A stretch of DNA of 64,000 nt from Escherichia phage REP1. Numbering within the stretch: the first letter of the stretch is position 1; each line of letters begins with the position of its first letter. Location: the sequence record OQ174500.1; one strand, written 5' to 3'. The notes under the pieces are model-generated. The model saw only the letters and a program-made list of their open reading frames with translations. It was not told the DNA's origin and did no database searches. Below, in pieces: positions 5,524-40,632 of this stretch. The translations under genes were made by a program, and so were the position numbers.

Positions 5524-5835
5524 ATGATTAGTTTTGAGCGGTATGTAGTAGAGAGTTGGAATGGTTTTGATATGTTCGGTAATGACTATTATTTCTATGA
5601 ATGTAGTCTGAACCCAAGCTTCTGGGCTGGACGTGAACAAGACCTCGAAGAAATCAACGCTCGTGCCGATTTGTTAGGTGAACTGCCTACGGTTTATTTT
5701 ACCTTTGATGAATCCGGCTTCGTTATCCAGGTTTATTTTCCTGAAGAAAACTCTGGTGAGGATTCTGTTAATCCTCCTTATTGGGCTTACCAAGGAATTA
5801 TTTCTCGTGGAACAAAACTCGAACTTAAAGAATAA
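5524..5835 (+). CDS. hypothetical acidic protein
   Basis: 103-aa ORF with AAGGA RBS. Confidence 0.5.
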   Translation: MISFERYVVESWNGFDMFGNDYYFYECSLNPSFWAGREQDLEEINARADLLGELPTVYFTFDESGFVIQVYFPEENSGEDSVNPPYWAYQGIISRGTKLELKE

Positions 5836-5836
5836 G

Positions 5837-6130
5837 ATTGAAGTCTATGGAATTCCAGATGAAGTAGGTCGTTGTCCTGGATGTCAATCAGTTACAAAAC
5901 TTCTAAAGGAGCTCAATGCTCCTTTTACTTTTTATAAAGTTCTTACTAATAATGGTAAGATTGAGTATGATCGTCAACTGATTGTATCTCTTGCTAAACG
6001 CGCTGGATTCACATCTCTTAACATTCGTTATCCAGTCATTTTCATTAATGATTCCAGACAAAAGAACATTAAACACTTCAAAGAAACTCTCATTTCACTT
6101 GGATATGATAGAGATATCATAGAAGACTAA
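5837..6130 (+). CDS. glutaredoxin/NrdH-like redoxin (CPGC), start codon unresolved (possible ATT)
   Basis: Translation IEVYGIPDEVGRCPGCQSV...YPVIFIND is a glutaredoxin fold; no ATG/GTG/TTG in frame between upstream TAA (5833-5835) and the domain. Confidence 0.55.
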   Translation: MEVYGIPDEVGRCPGCQSVTKLLKELNAPFTFYKVLTNNGKIEYDRQLIVSLAKRAGFTSLNIRYPVIFINDSRQKNIKHFKETLISLGYDRDIIED

Positions 6131-12532: not shown

Positions 12533-12792
12533 CTTTTGATGAATTTAAAAATGTTATGATGAGTCAGCATTTTGAATGCGAAGTAAAAGATGATATTGGT
12601 CATAAAGAAATTATTGAATATTGGTTTGAACCGCTAGAGGTTGAAGATAATTGTATTAAAAAGGTTACAGTCTGCACTGACTGGGCTGTATCTTTTAACT
12701 TCAACATTTTAGATAATGACACACCTAAATCATTACGAGATATGGCTGTATCTTGTATTAAGGATGCATACTGTGAAGTTTTCGACATTTGA
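12529..12792 (+). CDS. hypothetical protein (46.2-like position)
   Basis: 87-aa ORF, ATGA overlap with gene 47. Confidence 0.5.
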   Translation: MTFDEFKNVMMSQHFECEVKDDIGHKEIIEYWFEPLEVEDNCIKKVTVCTDWAVSFNFNILDNDTPKSLRDMAVSCIKDAYCEVFDI

Positions 12793-12979
12793 CATTAATG
12801 ATGAATTCATAGCAAACATTGATTATACCGAAGAAGATTCTAGATATGTTGGAATAATTTATATTACATCAAAAACAGCACAAGGTGTTGTTTGCATGGC
12901 TGAATTTGATGAATACTTTTTAGATTATGATGATATGATAGAATGGTCTAAAAGATACATTAAAAGGAATCTTTTGTGA
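12716..12979 (+). CDS. hypothetical protein (46.1-like position); start uncertain (12716 or 12764)
   Basis: Track ORF overlaps the previous ORF; internal ATG at 12764. Confidence 0.4.
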   Translation: MTHLNHYEIWLYLVLRMHTVKFSTFDINDEFIANIDYTEEDSRYVGIIYITSKTAQGVVCMAEFDEYFLDYDDMIEWSKRYIKRNLL

Positions 12980-14658
12980 AGAATTTTAAACTAAACCGAG
13001 TTAGGTATCAAAATATAATGTCAGTAGGTGGAAATCCTATTGACATTCAATTAGATAAGGTTCAAAAAACTCTTATTACTGGACGAAATGGCGGTGGTAA
13101 GTCTACTATGTTAGAAGCCATCACATTTGGGCTTTTTGGCAAGCCATTTCGCGATGTAAAGAAAGGTCAATTAATAAACAGCACAAATAAGAAAGAACTT
13201 TTAGTTGAACTGTGGATGGAATATGATGAGAAAAAGTACTATATCAAAAGAGGACAAAAACCGAACGTTTTTGAAATCACCGTTAACGGTACACGTCTTA
13301 ATGAATCTGCCAGCAGTAAAGATTTCCAAGCAGAATTTGAACAGCTTATCGGAATGTCATATGCCAGTTTCAAGCAGATTGTTGTCCTTGGTACAGCAGG
13401 GTATACCCCTTTCATGGGTTTGTCGACCCCTGCACGAAGAAAGCTTGTGGAAGACCTGCTTGAGGTAGGAACATTAGCTGAAATGGATAAGCTTAATAAA
13501 GCACTAATACGTGAATTAAATTCGCAGAACCAAGTGCTTGATGTTAAAAAAGATAGTATTATCCAACAAATTAAAATATATAATGATAATGTTGAACGCC
13601 AGAAAAAATTGTCTGGTGACAACCTTACTCGTCTACAAAATATGTATGATGATTTGGCAAAAGAAGCTAGAACGCTAAAATCGGAAATAGAAGAAGCTAA
13701 TGAAAGATTAGTTAATATTGTTTTGGATGAAGACCCGACTGATGCATTTAATAAAATCGGTCAAGAAGCAGTTTTAATTAAATCAAAAATTGACTCGTAT
13801 AATAAAGTCATTAATATGTATCACGAAGGTGGATTATGTCCAACCTGTTTGTCACAATTAAGTTCCGGTGATAAAGTTGTTTCTAAAATTAAAGATAAAG
13901 TTTCTGAATGTACGCATTCGTTTGAACAGCTTTCAACACACCGTGATAATTTAAAAGTTCTTGTCGATGAATACCGAGATAATATTAAAACCCAACAGTC
14001 GTTGGCGAATGATATTCGCAATAAAAAGCAATCCCTAATCACAACGGTAGATAAAGCTAAAAAAGTTAAAGCAGCTATAGAAAAAGCATCTTCTGAGTTT
14101 ATTGACCATGCTGATGAAATAGCACTGCTTCAAGAAGAACTTGATAAAATTATTAAGACAAAAACTAATTTAGTAATGGAAAAATACCACCGAGGAATTT
14201 TGACTGATATGCTCAAAGATTCTGGTATTAAAGGTGCTATTATTAAAAAGTACATTCCATTATTTAATAAGCAGATTAACCATTATCTTAAAATAATGGA
14301 AGCGGATTATGTGTTTACATTAGATGAAGAATTTAATGAGACAATTAAATCCCGTGGTCGTGAAGATTTTAGTTATGCTTCATTCAGTCAAGGTGAAAAA
14401 GCGCGAATTGATATTGCTCTTTTATTTACTTGGCGTGATATTGCTGAAAAAGTTTCAGGTGTTAAAATAAACACACTAATTCTTGATGAAGTTTTTGATT
14501 CAGCGACCGACGTTGAAGGTGTAAAAGCTATTTCAACTATTTTAGATAGTTTAAAAAATACTAATGTTTTTGTTATTTCACATAGAGACCATGACCCGCA
14601 AGCATACGGTCAGCATCTTCAAATGAAGAAAGTTGGTCGATTTACTGTAATGGTTTAA
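12976..14658 (+). CDS. 46: recombination nuclease ATPase subunit gp46 (Rad50/SbcC-like)
   Basis: 560 aa; Walker A GRNGGGKST; zinc hook CPTC; GTG start; matches T4 gp46. Confidence 0.92.
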   Translation: MKNFKLNRVRYQNIMSVGGNPIDIQLDKVQKTLITGRNGGGKSTMLEAITFGLFGKPFRDVKKGQLINSTNKKELLVELWMEYDEKKYYIKRGQKPNVFEITVNGTRLNESASSKDFQAEFEQLIGMSYASFKQIVVLGTAGYTPFMGLSTPARRKLVEDLLEVGTLAEMDKLNKALIRELNSQNQVLDVKKDSIIQQIKIYNDNVERQKKLSGDNLTRLQNMYDDLAKEARTLKSEIEEANERLVNIVLDEDPTDAFNKIGQEAVLIKSKIDSYNKVINMYHEGGLCPTCLSQLSSGDKVVSKIKDKVSECTHSFEQLSTHRDNLKVLVDEYRDNIKTQQSLANDIRNKKQSLITTVDKAKKVKAAIEKASSEFIDHADEIALLQEELDKIIKTKTNLVMEKYHRGILTDMLKDSGIKGAIIKKYIPLFNKQINHYLKIMEADYVFTLDEEFNETIKSRGREDFSYASFSQGEKARIDIALLFTWRDIAEKVSGVKINTLILDEVFDSATDVEGVKAISTILDSLKNTNVFVISHRDHDPQAYGQHLQMKKVGRFTVMV

Positions 14659-34126: not shown

Positions 34127-34725
34127 AATACTCAGTAATGCAACTAAAAGATTTTAAAATAAAATCAATGGATGCATCGGTGCGTGCTTCTATTCGTGAA
34201 GAATTACTTTCTGAAGGGTTTAATTTATCTGAAATTGAACTTTTAATTCATTGTATTACCAACAAACCAGATGACCATACTTGGTTAAATGAAATAATCA
34301 AATCTCGTTTGGTTCCAAACGATAAACCTCTTTGGAGAGGTGTTCCAGTCGAGACTAAGCAGGTGTTAAATCAAGGAATTGATATTATTACATTTGATAA
34401 AGTCGTATCAGCTTCATATGATAAAAATATAGCTCTACATTTTGCTTCCGGTTTAGAGTATAACACACAGGTTATTTTTGAATTCAAAGCTCCTATGGTA
34501 TTCAATTTCCAGGAGTATGCTATAAAAGCTCTACGCTGTAAAGAATACAATCCAAACTTTAAGTTTCCGGATAGCCATCGTTATCGTAATATGGAATTAG
34601 TTTCAGATGAACAAGAAGTAATGATACCAGCTGGAAGTGTATTTAAAATTGCAGATAGATATGAGTACAAAAAGTATTCAACATACACTATCTATACTCT
34701 TGATTTTGAAGGATTTAATCTATAA
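34123..34725 (+). CDS. modA: ADP-ribosyltransferase ModA-like
   Basis: 200 aa; LWRG, SASYD, EQEVMIP motifs; paralog of preceding gene. Confidence 0.7.
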   Translation: MKYSVMQLKDFKIKSMDASVRASIREELLSEGFNLSEIELLIHCITNKPDDHTWLNEIIKSRLVPNDKPLWRGVPVETKQVLNQGIDIITFDKVVSASYDKNIALHFASGLEYNTQVIFEFKAPMVFNFQEYAIKALRCKEYNPNFKFPDSHRYRNMELVSDEQEVMIPAGSVFKIADRYEYKKYSTYTIYTLDFEGFNL

Positions 34726-34764
34726 TGGAAGGACTTAGATTCATTATACCATGAAATTTTTAAA

Positions 34765-34812
34765 GCATTTTTACATAAAGTTGTTTACAATCTGAAGTAA
34801 AAATGTTATAGT
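34765..34812 (+). promoter_or_regulatory. early promoter (GTTTAC ... TATAGT)
   Basis: ttttacataaagttGTTTACaatctgaagtaaaaatgtTATAGT. Confidence 0.5.
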
Positions 34813-34850
34813 ATAAGTAGTTAACCCGTCCGTGAGAAAAATAGAAAAAT

Positions 34851-35597
34851 ATGAAACTGACTAATAATCAAATTCGTAAAATTAAACGTCGTTTAGAGCA
34901 CACTCAGGCATCTGCAAAAAGACGTTCTAAAGATTTTAACTTAGACTTCAATTACATTAAGAATATTTTAGATCAAAAAGTTTGTGCCTATTCAGGAGAA
35001 CCTTTTGATAATCGTATTGAAGGAGAGAAATTATCATTAGAACGTTTTGATAATAACATTGGATACATTAAAGGGAATGTTATTGCAGTAAAGAAAAAGT
35101 ATAATACATTTCGTTCTGATTACACTTTAGAAGAGTTGATTGAAAAGCGTGATTTATTTGCTTTGCGAATTGGTCGTTCATCTGCGAAAAAAGTTCATAA
35201 ACTAAATTTAGATGAAAAGAAATGGGCTAAAATCAAAAAGACTTATAATCAAATTAAAGCTATACAGAAAAAACGTGAAAACCGAATTGAACACATTTCT
35301 CAGCTTTCTAAATCAAAACAGACCTCTGACATTAAGCTAAGGATTATAGCACTTAAAGCTCGTATTGATGGTTCTCGCATAGCAGAAGGCGCTGAAGTTG
35401 TTAAACTGAACGTTCTTCTTAAAGGCTCGGATTGGAAAATTGTGAAAAAGTTGTCAGAAGCAGAAATGCAATATGATATGTGTGATAAAATTATTCAAGG
35501 TGTAGAGCGGTATCAAAACTTGTCTTTTATTGATAAACTTAAACTGAAAAGAGGATACCCGCTAAATTGTTCAATTTTTAAACTTATCCGAGGATAA
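34851..35597 (+). CDS. hypothetical basic protein (srd-position; function uncertain)
   Basis: 248 aa; Lys/Arg rich; between modA and dda. Confidence 0.4.
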   Translation: MKLTNNQIRKIKRRLEHTQASAKRRSKDFNLDFNYIKNILDQKVCAYSGEPFDNRIEGEKLSLERFDNNIGYIKGNVIAVKKKYNTFRSDYTLEELIEKRDLFALRIGRSSAKKVHKLNLDEKKWAKIKKTYNQIKAIQKKRENRIEHISQLSKSKQTSDIKLRIIALKARIDGSRIAEGAEVVKLNVLLKGSDWKIVKKLSEAEMQYDMCDKIIQGVERYQNLSFIDKLKLKRGYPLNCSIFKLIRG

Positions 35598-35598
35598 T

Positions 35599-35910
35599 AT
35601 GGTTTATGTATATGCGATAGTTTACCGAGACAAAGACGGATTTACTGCGCCAGTTCCACTTGATGAACATCGTCCTGCTGTGTTTTTTGAAAGAGAGATT
35701 GCTGATAGAGTTTTTACTACTCTCAAAGACCAATATCGACTAGCTTTAGGTATGGGAATTCCAAGACTAGTTGAGACTCCACGCAAGTTTTGGTTTAATA
35801 AAATAGAAGTTAAACATGTTAAGCCTGATGTAGATACACAAAGATTATATCAACGAATTCTAGATACTGGGCGTATTGTTAGTATTCCAATTGCAGGGAC
35901 TTTCCGATGA
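35599..35910 (+). CDS. hypothetical protein (dda.1-like)
   Basis: 103-aa ORF. Confidence 0.5.
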   Translation: MVYVYAIVYRDKDGFTAPVPLDEHRPAVFFEREIADRVFTTLKDQYRLALGMGIPRLVETPRKFWFNKIEVKHVKPDVDTQRLYQRILDTGRIVSIPIAGTFR

Positions 35911-37226
35911 CATTTGATGATTTGACAGAAGGCCAGAAAAATGCCTTTAACATCGTTATGAGGGCTATTAAAGAAAAGAAACATCATGTAACTATTAATG
36001 GACCTGCTGGTACTGGTAAGACTACTCTTACTAAGTTCATCATTGAAGCTTTAATATCAACAGGCGAAACTGGTATCATTTTGGCAGCTCCTACACATGC
36101 AGCTAAAAAGATTCTTTCAAAACTGTCGGGGAAAGAAGCGAGTACTATTCACAGTATTCTTAAAATTAACCCAGTTACGTATGAAGAAAACGTTCTTTTT
36201 GAACAGAAGGAAGTACCAGATTTAGCTAAATGCAGGGTATTAATCTGCGACGAAGTGTCAATGTATGATAGAAAGCTATTTAAAATTCTGCTTTCAACTA
36301 TTCCACCTTGGTGTACTATAATTGGAATAGGTGATAATAAGCAAATTAGACCTGTTGATCCAGGAGAAAATACTGCTTATATCAGTCCATTCTTTACACA
36401 CAAAGATTTTTATCAGTGTGAACTTACTGAAGTTAAACGCAGTAATGCTCCTATTATTGATGTAGCTACTGATGTTCGCAACGGTAAGTGGATTTATGAT
36501 AAAGTTGTTGACGGGCATGGAGTACGTGGATTTACTGGTGATACCGCTTTACGCGATTTTATGGTAAATTATTTTTCAATCGTAAAATCATTAGATGATT
36601 TGTTTGAAAATCGCGTAATGGCATTTACGAATAAATCTGTTGACAAGTTAAATAGCATTATTCGTAAAAAGATTTTTGAAACTGATAAAGATTTTATTGT
36701 TGGTGAAATTATTGTAATGCAGGAACCATTAATTAAAACATATAAAATTGATGGAAAGCCTGTGTCAGAAATTATTTTTAATAACGGACAATTAGTTCGT
36801 ATTATAGAAGCAGAGTATACATCAACGTTTGTTAAAGCTCGTGGTGTTACTGGAGAATACTTAATTCGTCATTGGGATTTAACAGTAGAAACTTATGGCG
36901 ATGATGAATATTATCGTGAAAAGATTAAAATAATTTCATCTGATGAAGAGCTATATAAGTTTAACCTGTTTTTAGGTAAAACGGCAGAAACTTATAAAAA
37001 TTGGAACAAAGGCGGAAAAGCTCCGTGGAGTGATTTTTGGGATGCTAAATCACAGTTTAGTAAAGTGAAAGCACTTCCTGCATCAACATTCCATAAAGCT
37101 CAGGGTATGTCTGTAGACCGTGCTTTCATTTATACGCCTTGTATTCATTATGCAGATGCTGAACTAGCTCAACAACTTCTTTATGTTGGTGTAACACGTG
37201 GTCGTTATGATGTATTTTATGTGTGA
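35907..37226 (+). CDS. dda: DNA helicase Dda (SF1)
   Basis: 439 aa; Walker A GPAGTGKTT; matches T4 Dda. Confidence 0.93.
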   Translation: MTFDDLTEGQKNAFNIVMRAIKEKKHHVTINGPAGTGKTTLTKFIIEALISTGETGIILAAPTHAAKKILSKLSGKEASTIHSILKINPVTYEENVLFEQKEVPDLAKCRVLICDEVSMYDRKLFKILLSTIPPWCTIIGIGDNKQIRPVDPGENTAYISPFFTHKDFYQCELTEVKRSNAPIIDVATDVRNGKWIYDKVVDGHGVRGFTGDTALRDFMVNYFSIVKSLDDLFENRVMAFTNKSVDKLNSIIRKKIFETDKDFIVGEIIVMQEPLIKTYKIDGKPVSEIIFNNGQLVRIIEAEYTSTFVKARGVTGEYLIRHWDLTVETYGDDEYYREKIKIISSDEELYKFNLFLGKTAETYKNWNKGGKAPWSDFWDAKSQFSKVKALPASTFHKAQGMSVDRAFIYTPCIHYADAELAQQLLYVGVTRGRYDVFYV

Positions 37227-37232
37227 GGCTAT

Positions 37233-37493
37233 ATGATTAACATCAATTCAAAATATTTAAATCGTCTAATAGATGGTATAAGGAAGCATACTAATAAGCA
37301 AGATAATCTCGATGTTATGGTAACAGGAGCTGAGCTCCTTCATAAGCTTTATCTTATAAGTGATACTATATTAGCAATTAAACGAATTGAAAAACAATCA
37401 TATCACAGTAATACAGATACGGTAATTACACTAGATGAAAGTGTCTGTAAATTACTAATTAAATTTGAGGAAGCTATTCGTGGAAATAACTAA
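37233..37493 (+). CDS. hypothetical protein, first of three tandem small ORFs
   Basis: 86-aa ORF. Confidence 0.5.
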   Translation: MININSKYLNRLIDGIRKHTNKQDNLDVMVTGAELLHKLYLISDTILAIKRIEKQSYHSNTDTVITLDESVCKLLIKFEEAIRGNN

Positions 37494-37725
37494 AGATCAG
37501 TTTTATCTTCTTCAGGATAAAGTTAGCGAAATTTATGAAATTGCTCATGGTAAAAATCGTGAAACTGTAAAAATTGAATCTAGTAAGTTGATGCTTCAAT
37601 TAGAAGAAATTGAACGAGATTTAATTGCGTTAGAATTCTTTTGCGGTGAAGTGAAAACTGTTACAATTAATGATTATGTTTTAGGCGAAATTAGCTATCT
37701 TTATGAGGCGATTATTAATGATTGA
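37465..37725 (+). CDS. hypothetical protein (paralog family; probable start at GTG 37480)
   Basis: Track start is TTG; GAGGAAG RBS precedes GTG at 37480. Confidence 0.45.
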   Translation: MRKLFVEITKDQFYLLQDKVSEIYEIAHGKNRETVKIESSKLMLQLEEIERDLIALEFFCGEVKTVTINDYVLGEISYLYEAIIND

Positions 37726-37960
37726 ATTAAGTTGGTACCAATTTAAATCTCTTATGACAAATGTTAAAGCTGTCATTGAAGAAAATTCAGGACCTGATAA
37801 TGTTACTATTCGCGAAAAAGCTTTAAAGATAGTATACAGTCTTGAAGAGATACAAAAAGATATTGAATCTATGGCAAAATTTATTGATGAGCCTATTAAT
37901 AAAGTTTATATTCAAGACTATACTGTAGGTCAAATTCGCGATTTAGCAAGGAAAATTTAA
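37718..37960 (+). CDS. hypothetical protein (paralog of preceding ORF)
   Basis: 80 aa; shared LEEIxxDI and DYxxGxI pattern. Confidence 0.45.
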   Translation: MIELSWYQFKSLMTNVKAVIEENSGPDNVTIREKALKIVYSLEEIQKDIESMAKFIDEPINKVYIQDYTVGQIRDLARKI

Positions 37961-38643
37961 TGTTTGATTTTATTATAGATTTTGAAACAATGGGAAGTGG
38001 TGAAAAAGCAGCTGTTATTGATTTGGCTGTAATTGCTTTTGACCCTAATCCAGAAGTCGTTGAAACATTTGATGAATTAGTTTCACGTGGCATTAAAATC
38101 AAATTTGATTTAAAAAGCCAAAAAGGACATCGTCTTTTTACTAAAAGCACTATCGAATGGTGGAAGAATCAATCCCCTGAAGCTCGAAAAAATATTGCGC
38201 CATCAGATGAAGATGTAAGCACTATCGATGGTATTGCAAAATTTAATGATTACATCAATGCGCATAATATCGATCCTTGGAAATCTCAAGGCTGGTGCCG
38301 TGGAATGTCGTTTGATTTTCCAATTTTAGTCGATCTCATTCGCGATATTCAACGTCTTAACGGCGTTTCCGAGAATGAGCTTGATACATTTAAGTTAGAA
38401 CCGTGTAAATTCTGGAATCAGCGTGATATTCGTACCAGAATTGAAGCACTTCTCCTTGTTCGTGATATGACTACGTGTCCTCTTCCAAAAGGAACTTTAG
38501 ATGGATTCGTTGCGCATGATTCCATTCATGACTGTGCGAAAGACATCCTGATGATGAAGTATGCTTTGCGCTATGCTATGGGTCTTGAAGATGCTCCGTC
38601 AGAGGAAGAGTGCGATCCTCTATCTCTTCCAACAAAACGATAA
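37960..38643 (+). CDS. dexA: exonuclease A (DEDDh 3'-5' exonuclease)
   Basis: 227 aa; N-terminal DFETMG exo I motif; matches T4 DexA. Confidence 0.9.
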   Translation: MFDFIIDFETMGSGEKAAVIDLAVIAFDPNPEVVETFDELVSRGIKIKFDLKSQKGHRLFTKSTIEWWKNQSPEARKNIAPSDEDVSTIDGIAKFNDYINAHNIDPWKSQGWCRGMSFDFPILVDLIRDIQRLNGVSENELDTFKLEPCKFWNQRDIRTRIEALLLVRDMTTCPLPKGTLDGFVAHDSIHDCAKDILMMKYALRYAMGLEDAPSEEECDPLSLPTKR

Positions 38644-38644
38644 A

Positions 38645-38682
38645 AAGTTGTTTACTTCCTCGGTTAGTTGTGGTATTATAAC
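38645..38682 (+). promoter_or_regulatory. early promoter (GTTTAC ... TATTAT)
   Basis: aaaagttGTTTACttcctcggttagttgtggTATTAT. Confidence 0.5.
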
Positions 38683-38706
38683 ACCATAGCTACTGAGGAT
38701 AATAAA

Positions 38707-39210
38707 ATGAAAATTTATCGTGTTGAATCATCATTTAGTATTCTTAATTATGAAGATGCTATAACAATACGTCGAGATCTTTGTGTTCAAATAACTCCGT
38801 ACAGGAGTATAATGGATTCATGGAGCGAAGAGTGGTTATTACACGTAGGTTATGACAGACCTAATTTTATGCATCATAGTAATGATAATAAAAGAATTCC
38901 TCTTCCGCACGAAGACAAACTATTAGTTAAAAATGCTAATATAGCAATTAATACTAATTTTGAGAAAGAAGAATATGTAGGCGTAGATCACTATATTCCA
39001 GGATGGTTTATAGCTCTTTATCATTTTGCTTTTGCTAGTGAATATGATATGATGAGATGGTTCACACGAGAAGAGCGTGAAGAATTAGCTTCTAAAGGAT
39101 TTTATCTCGCTGTATACGAAGTACCTGAAGATAAAGTTATCATTGGTGGGCATCAAGTAATGTTCCGCAAGTCACATGCCGAATTAAAAGGCTTTATTAC
39201 CTTAGATTAA
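38707..39210 (+). CDS. hypothetical early protein
   Basis: 167 aa from ATG after GAGGA RBS. Confidence 0.5.
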   Translation: MKIYRVESSFSILNYEDAITIRRDLCVQITPYRSIMDSWSEEWLLHVGYDRPNFMHHSNDNKRIPLPHEDKLLVKNANIAINTNFEKEEYVGVDHYIPGWFIALYHFAFASEYDMMRWFTREEREELASKGFYLAVYEVPEDKVIIGGHQVMFRKSHAELKGFITLD

Positions 39211-39220
39211 AGAGAAAATT

Positions 39221-39658
39221 ATGATTAAAAATAATGCTGTTTATCAATTGAAAAAATTTGATGAAATTAAGAATTTTTCGGTACTGTCTAATACAGCTCA
39301 TAATAAGTTTTGTGAACTTCTTGGTTTAACTGGCGGATATCCTTTTACTGTTATTAGTGTTAATAGCGGAATTCTTATCGGTATGATGTATATTGAAATT
39401 AGAAACTATTATGGAATGGTATCACCGCTTATTATTTATGAAAAAGATTTTAGTCTATTGACAGAAATTGAAAAACCTGAAGATCCAACTGATCTGCTGT
39501 GTAAGGCAGTTTATATTCGTCGTCCATTCGCGAATCCTGTGGGTGGATGGGTGACTGATCAGTGGATTGAAGATGGTGTTGAACTTCTGAACGTAGTTCA
39601 TGCTGGAGAGTACTCTGTAGTTCCTCGCAGCGCAGTGATTAATGTTCGTGTAAGCTAG
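39221..39658 (+). CDS. hypothetical protein sharing C-terminal domain with the next two ORFs
   Basis: 145 aa; C-terminal GGWVTDQWIEDGVELLNVVHAGEYSVVP. Confidence 0.55.
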   Translation: MIKNNAVYQLKKFDEIKNFSVLSNTAHNKFCELLGLTGGYPFTVISVNSGILIGMMYIEIRNYYGMVSPLIIYEKDFSLLTEIEKPEDPTDLLCKAVYIRRPFANPVGGWVTDQWIEDGVELLNVVHAGEYSVVPRSAVINVRVS

Positions 39659-39688
39659 TTTACAAACTCTTGGACCAGAGTATAATGG
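39658..39688 (+). promoter_or_regulatory. early promoter (GTTTAC, 17 nt, TATAAT)
   Basis: taGTTTACaaactcttggaccagagTATAAT. Confidence 0.5.
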
Positions 39689-39729
39689 TCCTGCGGAGTA
39701 TAAATCTTAACAACAAAGAGAGAAAAATT

Positions 39730-40203
39730 ATGATTACTATCGGTGAAATTAAGCGTGTATCGTCTGCATCTCGTTCTAAAGCTGCAGGTCGTCTAGTTGA
39801 AGTGGTAGGACTTCGTACTAATGGTACTGGTCGTGTTAAAGAAGTTAAAGTTCGAATCATTCCTAGTTCTGGAAAAACTGAAACTCAGTACGCTTACGTA
39901 AGTCCTAAATTTCTGGAAACTCGTGTTAGCTCTCATTTTGCTTCTGTTGAAGAAGTTGAATCCACTGAGTCTAATGCACAATTTAAATGGGCGTTGTGTA
40001 AAGGCGTTGAATTTGTAACTGATGAAGAATTCGATTATATTGATGATTTCGCTGGTCCAAGTAAAACTGATAGGATGTGTGGCTTCATCACAGACCAATG
40101 GGTTGAAGATGGTGAAAAGCTCTACAATATCGTATTCTTAGGTGACTTCCGGGTTGTTGAAGAATCTGAAATCACTCGTTATGCTTCTCCTCATAAAGCT
40201 TAA
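39730..40203 (+). CDS. hypothetical protein, tandem paralog
   Basis: 157 aa; ASRSKAAGRLVEV N-term and GFITDQWVEDGEKLYNIVFLGDFRVV C-term. Confidence 0.55.
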   Translation: MITIGEIKRVSSASRSKAAGRLVEVVGLRTNGTGRVKEVKVRIIPSSGKTETQYAYVSPKFLETRVSSHFASVEEVESTESNAQFKWALCKGVEFVTDEEFDYIDDFAGPSKTDRMCGFITDQWVEDGEKLYNIVFLGDFRVVEESEITRYASPHKA

Positions 40204-40212
40204 GGAATTATT

Positions 40213-40632
40213 ATGAATATTGTAAATCTCTCTACTGGTGATTACGTATATGTATCCGTTGCTTCTCGTTCTAAAGTTGCAGGAAAGCTGGTTGAAGTTC
40301 TTTCTGTAAGTGATCCAGTTTTTGGTCGTAACGAGGTTAAAGTTCGTGACGCTGATGGTAACATTGGTTATGTCTCAAGTCAGTTCATTGAGCCAGAAGA
40401 AAGCGCATTTAAATGGAAACTTTGTTCTTCAGTTTTAGTTGTAAAAGACCATAAATTCACAATTGCGGCGGCAACAGATGGAACTCCATGGACAACGAAT
40501 CAAGTCGCTGGTTTTATTTCGGACCGTTGGGTAGAAGATGGTGTCAAGCTCTACAATATTGTTTTTGCAGGCCAGTTCATGGTAGTTCCTGAATTCCAAA
40601 TTAAAAAATGGTGCGAAGCAGCTTTAGCATAA
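40213..40632 (+). CDS. hypothetical protein, tandem paralog
   Basis: 139 aa; ASRSKVAGKLVEV and GFISDRWVEDGVKLYNIVFAGQFMVV. Confidence 0.55.
   Translation: MNIVNLSTGDYVYVSVASRSKVAGKLVEVLSVSDPVFGRNEVKVRDADGNIGYVSSQFIEPEESAFKWKLCSSVLVVKDHKFTIAAATDGTPWTTNQVAGFISDRWVEDGVKLYNIVFAGQFMVVPEFQIKKWCEAALA

Follow-up and report, generated by a model that had tools for sequence, protein, structure and literature searches.

In Escherichia phage REP1, the interval from dda (helicase) to dexA (exonuclease) probably houses three paralogs in tandem that diverged long ago, individual copies being prone to loss at short repeats and the products being proposed here to act as binding proteins. The proposal concerns a single family of small proteins (76-86 aa), found only in T4-like phages, that is located between dda and dexA and coupled to dexA. 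Single copies are lost precisely, through recombination between repeats of 5-6 bp at gene boundaries, and unequal recombination at short homologies may likewise have given rise to the array itself. The open reading frames (ORFs) as such are already annotated in hundreds of genomes and the three-gene arrangement is common. What is new with respect to searchable records, family libraries and papers is that the first ORF appears to belong, so far unrecognized, to the DexA.1/DexA.2 family as its third member, that T4 lost this gene by a short-repeat deletion, and that the number of copies ranges from zero to three.

Organization of the dda-dexA interval

The window, i.e. the whole stretch of 64,000 nucleotides of sequence record OQ174500.1 that was analyzed, comes from a Tequatrovirus (T4-like phage). 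On its + strand the genes follow each other in the order srd, dda.1, dda, three small ORFs and dexA. The features considered below are as follows.

34851-35597, + strand: srd
35599-35910, + strand: dda.1
35907-37226, + strand: dda (DNA helicase), upstream flank; ORF of 439 aa, with dda annotated at the same position in RB51 and T4
37233-37493, + strand: ORF1, 86 aa, ATG start; ortholog of RB14ncORF017c
37236-37240, + strand: ATTAA, 5-bp direct repeat of the ORF1 deletion in T4-type phages, left copy
37458-37462, + strand: ATTAA, right copy, within the 3′-terminal part of ORF1, a short distance 5′ of the dexA.2 ribosome-binding site
37480-37725, + strand: dexA.2 (UniProt Y00H in T4), 81 aa, GTG start
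37715-37720, + strand: TTAATG, 6-bp direct repeat of the dexA.1 deletion (EP01, vB_SsoM_113), left copy
37718-37960, + strand: dexA.1 (UniProt Y00G in T4), 80 aa, ATG start
37957-37962, + strand: TTAATG, right copy, bridging the stop of dexA.1 and the start of dexA, 242 nt from the left copy
37960-38643, + strand: dexA (exonuclease A), downstream flank; 1-nt overlap between its start codon and the stop codon of dexA.1

The three overlapping + strand ORFs, described in an earlier note on this DNA as filling the gap between dda and dexA, cover positions 37233-37960 exactly. Their maximal lengths are 86, 86 and 85 aa, and the likely real genes encode 86, 81 and 80 aa; a GAGG Shine-Dalgarno motif precedes each of them by 5-10 nt, and the gene models are the same as those of RB51, T6, Sf25 and T4. 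In RB51 the three ORFs are annotated as RB14ncORF017c, dexA.2 and dexA.1. Through successive overlaps of 14, 8 and 1 nt along ORF1-dexA.2-dexA.1-dexA, the three small genes are coupled in translation to each other and to dexA. The 728-bp stretch is 98-99% identical to its counterpart in many T-even-type phages (496 matching records, 304 of them with at least 80% coverage). The GC content of the three small genes is 28-29%, versus 34-38% for dda and dexA. The region 34500-39000 contains no more promoter- and terminator-like sites than shuffled sequence does, and no Rfam family was found anywhere in the window.

ORF1, dexA.2 and dexA.1 are real genes under purifying selection, with a constraint ∼10 times weaker than that acting on dda and dexA. 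In pairwise comparisons of seven phages, dN/dS amounts to 0.04-0.21 for ORF1, 0.00-0.15 for dexA.2 and 0.09-0.40 for dexA.1, versus 0.01-0.06 for dda and 0.00-0.03 for dexA. At the level of expression, T4 dda.1-dda-dexA.2-dexA.1 apparently form one middle-phase transcript (bioRxiv 10.1101/2024.04.04.588121), and the DexA.2 protein has been detected in T4-infected cells, where cGAS was found conjugated to its residue K5 (PMC10097602).

Relationship of the three proteins

DexA.2 and DexA.1 are clear paralogs at the level of sequence. The pattern that the earlier note had recognized in the second and third ORFs corresponds to a BLASTP match with E=1e-10 and 31% identity over 83 residues. DexA.2 matches positions 1-80 of phrog_1700 (E 1.6e-49) and DexA.1 positions 80-159 of the same profile (E 5.6e-43). 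Both are orthologs of T4 proteins, DexA.2 (Y00H) and DexA.1 (Y00G) of PHROG 1700, which agree with them in position, overlaps and GTG start, show no material difference from the window proteins and are listed as hypothetical proteins; the window DexA.2 is 96% identical to that of T4, and DexA.1 differs from its T4 counterpart at ∼6 positions. A precomputed Pfam assignment, PF26837, is attached to protein P0005, which is identical to the window DexA.2. With 45-49% identity to Dhakavirus-type single-copy genes, dexA.1 is the copy orthologous to the single Dhakavirus gene.

The kinship of ORF1 is far less apparent. Its protein is 100% identical to that of RB51, and a word-indexed search returns only orthologs with at least 90% identity. 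It corresponds to RB14ncORF017c / RB14ORF015 (PHROG 4967; match to phrog_4967 with E 8e-59), annotated in T6 as 'hypothetical protein conserved in RB14, RB51' and treated as an orphan in searchable records, family libraries and papers, whereas the present analysis points to a divergent member of the DexA.1/DexA.2 family. Pairwise alignment, proposed in the earlier note as the check on a relationship between the three proteins, thus links DexA.2 with DexA.1 and leaves ORF1 aside: BLASTP of ORF1 against either of them gives nothing significant (E=21), and its identity to the DexA proteins is only ∼10-18%. By that pairwise test the claim of three related ORFs fails for ORF1, and it is through profiles and predicted structures that ORF1 nevertheless appears to belong with the other two.

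Among profiles, phrog_5263, which represents the single Gaprivervirus gene between dda and dexA (E 1.7e-32), matches all three window proteins, ORF1 over its full length with E 1.8e-5, DexA.2 with 1.7e-7 and DexA.1 with 7e-4. A second profile was built from the genes that Gapriver-, Karam-, Moon- and Gelderlandvirus carry as single copies, with zero Tequatrovirus sequences. It scores 19.1 bits for ORF1, 36.7 bits for DexA.2 and 27.2 bits for DexA.1, values that none of 20,000 shuffles reached in any of the three cases; the best shuffle for ORF1 stops at 13.4 bits, and the alignment of ORF1 with the profile is in register over residues 1-80. When the same profile is run over all 555 six-frame segments of the window, the three ORFs take the first three places (E 1.7e-10, 1.8e-7 and 4e-5) and are the only full-length matches. 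The fourth-best match (5678-6130, E=0.01) is local, covers 22 residues and was rejected as chance; the ORF at that place looks glutaredoxin/thioredoxin-type, with a CPGC motif.

The profile signal of ORF1 weakens when the Gaprivervirus genes are left out. With hhalign, ORF1 is linked to the Gaprivervirus group with P=5e-4, and this group to DexA.1/DexA.2/Dhakavirus with P=1.8e-9; the two links differ by half of the protein, the former being mainly N-terminal and the latter mainly C-terminal. With a profile that leaves out the Gaprivervirus group, ORF1 scores only 2.7 bits and goes undetected, and with one made of Karam-, Moon- and Gelderlandvirus genes only it scores 9.2 bits, a value reached by 7 of 20,000 shuffles. 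The precomputed PF26837 tag is present on all DexA.1 and DexA.2 relatives and absent from the ORF1 orthologs.

Predicted structures point in the same direction. The AlphaFold2 model of ORF1, computed from an alignment of its own orthologs only (at least 90% identical), has a pLDDT of 85.6 and the succession E2-5 H6-22 H26-52 E64-67 H69-84, and that of DexA.1, with a pLDDT of 94.9, reads E2-5 H6-22 H26-53 E62-65 H67-79. The two models thus share a strand-helix-helix-strand-helix topology over ∼80 residues with matching element boundaries, and the family fold is predicted to consist of a three-helix core and a two-stranded mini-sheet. In Foldseek comparisons against predicted viral structures, the ORF1 model retrieves its own ortholog first and then, almost throughout, syntenic small proteins of other T4-like phages (TM-scores of 0.79/0.88 for Yersinia phage fHe-Yen9-01, 0.71/0.76 for CC31 and 0.69/0.73 for the DexA.2 of BECP11). 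Conversely, the DexA.1 model retrieves the ORF1 ortholog of Sf25 (TM 0.80/0.75, rmsd 2.1 Å), so that the matches are reciprocal. Searches of the PDB by fold gave no match (best E 0.84, TM < 0.56), and by sequence profile only weak hits to 34-residue GCN4 peptides (E at least 0.017). A coiled-coil or GCN4-like zipper identity was rejected, since these matches are weak and the models describe a compact bundle and not an extended coil. On the profile and predicted-structure evidence taken together, ORF1 is best regarded as a divergent third member of the DexA.1/DexA.2 family.

Copy number, short repeats and the origin of the array

Record counts are 496 for dexA.2, 479 for dexA.1 and 308 for ORF1, the last gene being thus found in 62% of the 496 Tequatrovirus records, with T6, RB14 and RB51 among the carriers. 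The three-gene form is the majority state of the genus. In other genera the number of small genes between dda and dexA is as follows.

Dhakavirus (JS10, PSD9): 1
Gaprivervirus (EAWsc9): 1
Karamvirus (CC31): 1
Moonvirus (Merlin): 1
Gelderlandvirus (S16): 1
Mosigvirus (RB69): 0, dda lying directly beside dexA

In every single-copy case the gene overlaps the start of dexA. These genes of other Tevenvirinae (PHROG 5263; JS10 'dexA.1'; CC31p016; Merlin gp16; S16 gp8.1) resemble those of the window in length, position, overlap with the dexA start and predicted fold, and differ from them in being present as one copy versus three and in having only 14-49% identity to the window proteins. When 1.84 billion representative proteins were searched exhaustively by profile, no members came up beyond T4-like phage groups, matches to long repetitive proteins being judged noise. 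At the periphery stands Acinetobacter phage Acj9, of another subfamily, in which two small ORFs (92 and 71 aa) lie between dda and dexA; their lengths agree with the Foldseek matches E5EPF6 and E5EPF5 and their predicted fold is similar, while the profile signal is marginal or absent (7.3 bits, reached by 4 of 5,000 shuffles, and 2.2 bits), so that any membership of these ORFs would follow from fold and position only. In Aeromonas phage Aeh1, dexA adjoins the dUTPase gene, and the first 30 kb contain no dda and no gene of 76 or 83 aa; Aeh1 proteins occur among the weaker Foldseek matches.

Deletions account for part of this variation. As the earlier note stated, T4 has two small genes at this place, dexA.2 and dexA.1 only. 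The gap between dda and dexA.2 is 21 bp in T4, and together with the dexA.2 start it reads ATGATTAAATTTGAGGAAGCTATTCGTGGAAATAACTAA, which translates to MIKFEEAIRGNN followed by a stop, i.e. the first 2 and the last 10 codons of ORF1, in frame. The same junction, with its remnant of 12 ORF1 codons, is found in T4, ACG-C40, UFV-AREG1 and EP01. A deletion simulated on the window between the two ATTAA copies (37236 to 37458; 222 nt, 74 codons) gives the T4 remnant, beginning with ATGATTAAATTTGAGG; the dda-ORF1 spacer is 10 nt shorter in T4. The in-frame remnant shows that the T4 lineage lost ORF1 and that REP1 did not gain it. The dexA.1 deletion of EP01 and vB_SsoM_113 likewise joins short repeats, namely the TTAATG copies at 37715 and 37957; it places the dexA start at the former dexA.1 start and changes the C-terminus of DexA.2 from ...IND to ...INV. 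Four forms of the locus thus exist in Tequatrovirus: ORF1+dexA.2+dexA.1; dexA.2+dexA.1 (T4, ACG-C40, UFV-AREG1); ORF1+dexA.2 (vB_SsoM_113); and dexA.2 alone (EP01). In ime09, dexA.2 and dexA.1 form a putative fusion of 159 aa, which, if genuine and viable, would suggest a joint action of the two proteins.

Comparable events are documented in T4, which amplifies and deletes accessory genes at microhomologies of 2-10 bp (PMC9391042). At the dmd-tifA locus of T4 (Srikant et al. 2022, PMC9391042), small accessory genes likewise change in tandem copy number, and the ATTAA and TTAATG junctions of the REP1 locus fit the mechanism described there. The amplification at dmd-tifA is recent, with identical units and a known counter-defence function, whereas the dda-dexA copies are ancient and diverged. 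The dda-dexA locus is another case of T4 accessory genes reshaped by recombination at very short repeats. No DNA-level repeats were found among the three window genes, and the duplications are therefore old.

How the three genes came to stand side by side can be approached through their phylogeny. A neighbour-joining tree places DexA.1 together with the Dhakavirus-type gene, DexA.2 as sister to both, and ORF1 on a very long branch beside the Gaprivervirus gene. With 26-29% identity, this single-copy gene is also the closest to ORF1, so that ORF1 could be a xenolog of a Gaprivervirus-like gene, put beside a resident copy by illegitimate recombination at conserved gene boundaries, with DexA.1 corresponding to the Dhakavirus gene. 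Recombination within the array is indeed evident: between the window and RB51, ORF1 is identical (dS 0), and dS is 0.17 for dexA.2 and 0.13 for dda, which points to breakpoints within the array. The ORF1 branch is nevertheless very long in a tree that relies on ∼80 poorly conserved columns, and the sampled phages contain no close relative of ORF1 outside Tequatrovirus, so that a xenologous origin is rather unlikely. On either account, duplication in place or xenology, the event dates far back and the genes share a common ancestor.

It is considerably less plausible that ORF1 is an unrelated small gene lying beside dexA.2, its resemblance to the family being due to chance or to convergence on a simple helical fold. 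The BLASTP result, the separate PHROG (phrog_4967) and the missing PF26837 tag would all agree with this reading, and moderate TM-scores are frequent among small helical proteins. Against it stand the full-length profile match that none of the 20,000 shuffles equalled, the match to phrog_5263, and the length, orientation, position and coupling that ORF1 has in common with the family; the nearly identical element boundaries of the predicted structures and the reciprocal Foldseek matches to syntenic genes also speak for homology.

Finally, the extra copy seen in the earlier note is one gene more than the reference phage T4 possesses, but its explanation as a recent gain by duplication in the REP1 lineage can practically be dismissed in view of the remnant kept by T4, ACG-C40, UFV-AREG1 and EP01, the lack of DNA repeats and the low identity between copies, the presence of ORF1 in most Tequatrovirus records, and its long-standing annotation (RB14ncORF017c in RB51; T6).

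Possible roles of the small proteins

Pfam and NCBIfam scans of the three window proteins and two orthologs gave no credible domain match. The names dextranase and exonuclease carried by DexA.2 and DexA.1 in RefSeq and GenBank were rejected, given that these proteins of only 80 aa have no glycoside-hydrolase or nuclease domain, no PDB relative and no catalytic-looking motif; the labels appear to have been propagated from the gene symbol. Positions conserved across DexA.1, DexA.2 and the Dhakavirus and Gaprivervirus proteins comprise a hydrophobic core and a D-Y..G motif at the junction of strand 2 and helix 3, of which only the Asp is widely kept, ORF1 included, and may serve as a helix cap. 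The three paralogs have pI values of 7.9, 4.4 and 5.1 and thus differ strongly in charge. Recombinant T4 Y00H (DexA.2) and Y00G (DexA.1) are soluble in E. coli, and His-tagged Y00G co-elutes with a ∼9 kDa band that the authors suggest to be an E. coli protein (PMC8076793). A literature search found no phenotype for the small dda-dexA proteins and nothing on PF26837.

It is tentatively proposed that the family members are soluble proteins without enzymatic activity, which bind a partner and modulate it; the paralogs may have diverged towards different partners or variants, as their pI values would allow. Such a partner could be a protein of the host, bound for the purpose of takeover or counter-defence, or the Dda/DexA machinery expressed together with the family. 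A host target is favoured by the copy-number polymorphism, the relaxed constraint and the charge divergence, and a role linked to Dda/DexA by the conserved coupling to dexA. On the evolutionary pattern and the one co-eluting band, the balance leans slightly towards a host protein, while the conserved adjacency to dexA would be just as compatible with a DexA-linked role. Judging by RB69 and EP01, neither Dda nor DexA needs the small genes in order to be kept.

One possibility, still speculative, is that the array encodes a diversifying group of binders aimed at the host, such as inhibitors of a defence or takeover target, with copy numbers from zero to three and pI values tracking host targets. 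If so, ORF1, DexA.2 and DexA.1 would be directed against separate host proteins or alleles, each neutralizing its own, and the first target would be the putative E. coli protein of ∼9 kDa that co-elutes with Y00G.

Alternatively, and on rather uncertain grounds too, the small proteins could be dedicated accessory subunits or regulators of DexA (or Dda) and not host-directed. The recurrence of a small gene between dda and dexA, overlapping the dexA start, in at least six Tevenvirinae genera is consistent with such a role, as are the two syntenic Acj9 ORFs with their similar predicted fold and the co-transcription with dda in T4. However, RB69 has no small gene at all, EP01 manages with one copy, and Aeh1 combines a dexA next to the dUTPase gene with no such small gene or dda in its first 30 kb. 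The small genes also evolve ∼10 times faster than dda and dexA, and DexA produced recombinantly is soluble by itself, probably as a dimer (PMC8076793).

Relatives with zero, one, two and three copies, together with the four dexA.2-containing combinations within one genus, constitute a natural series for probing the role of this well-expressed family. For the locus in hundreds of T4-like phages, the annotation can be tidied by grouping ORF1 with DexA.1/DexA.2 and by dropping 'dextranase' and 'exonuclease' from the names of the small proteins.

Probable mosaicism within the array and a possible gene fusion

Among the genes at the dda-dexA locus, ORF1 and its neighbours probably differ in history when compared with phage RB51. 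ORF1, the divergent third member of the DexA.1/DexA.2 family, shows 0 differences between the window and RB51, while dexA.2 beside it carries 7 synonymous differences and dda 33. Since ORF1 is identical to its RB51 counterpart but dexA.2 and dda are not, a recombination breakpoint probably lies inside the array, and this comparison of sequences (37233-37725) indicates mosaicism that would operate at the level of a single gene.

In the sequence of phage ime09 (positions 1748-2227), the dexA.2/dexA.1 overlap shows a 1-nt deletion, reading GGTTTTAATG instead of GATTATTAATG, which joins both genes into a single ORF of 159 aa. This fusion explains the length of 160 positions of phrog_1700, the PHROG profile matching both proteins. 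The ime09 ORF is either a natural fusion or a sequencing error, and no further fused protein was found among 122 cluster representatives. If natural, the fusion would hint that DexA.2 and DexA.1 act together.

Small ORFs at the same locus in Acj9

Acinetobacter phage Acj9, a member of a different subfamily (Twarogvirinae), also has two small ORFs of 71 and 92 aa between dda and dexA (12781-13274). Their lengths equal those of E5EPF5 and E5EPF6, the Foldseek matches of the DexA.1 and ORF1 models (TM 0.55-0.69). At the sequence level, a marginal signal is detected in the 92-aa ORF and none in the 71-aa ORF. The pair may be ancient, or it may have formed independently at the same locus.

Family assignment and database names

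In precomputed annotation, PF26837.1 is assigned to every DexA.1 and DexA.2 relative, including P0005, the database protein identical to DexA.2 of the window, whereas a local Pfam-A scan of DexA.1 and DexA.2 (37480-37960) gave no hit with a cutoff as loose as E<=1; apparently the annotation and the scan draw on different versions of Pfam. A search for the family name of PF26837 found none. DexA.2 is named 'dextranase' in RefSeq, both proteins are called 'exonuclease' in many GenBank and RefSeq records of T4-like phages, and one UniRef label reads 'tail sheath stabilizer'. No evidence from domain, fold or size was found for any of these names in DexA.1/DexA.2, and the names look like errors spread from the gene symbol.

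A second paralog set around motB

Just downstream of dexA, a second set of tandem paralogs occupies window positions 39221-40632:

39221-39658, ORF of 145 aa at the position of motB.1
39670-40203, motB, 177 aa as maximal ORF
40213-40632, ORF of 139 aa at the position of RB51ncORF010c, 'similar to motB' in the RB51 annotation

All three have in common the C-terminal motif G-[FW]-[IV]-[TS]-D-[QR]-W-[IV]-E-D-G...VV, and the 145-aa and 177-aa proteins align in BLASTP with 31% identity (E=2e-12).
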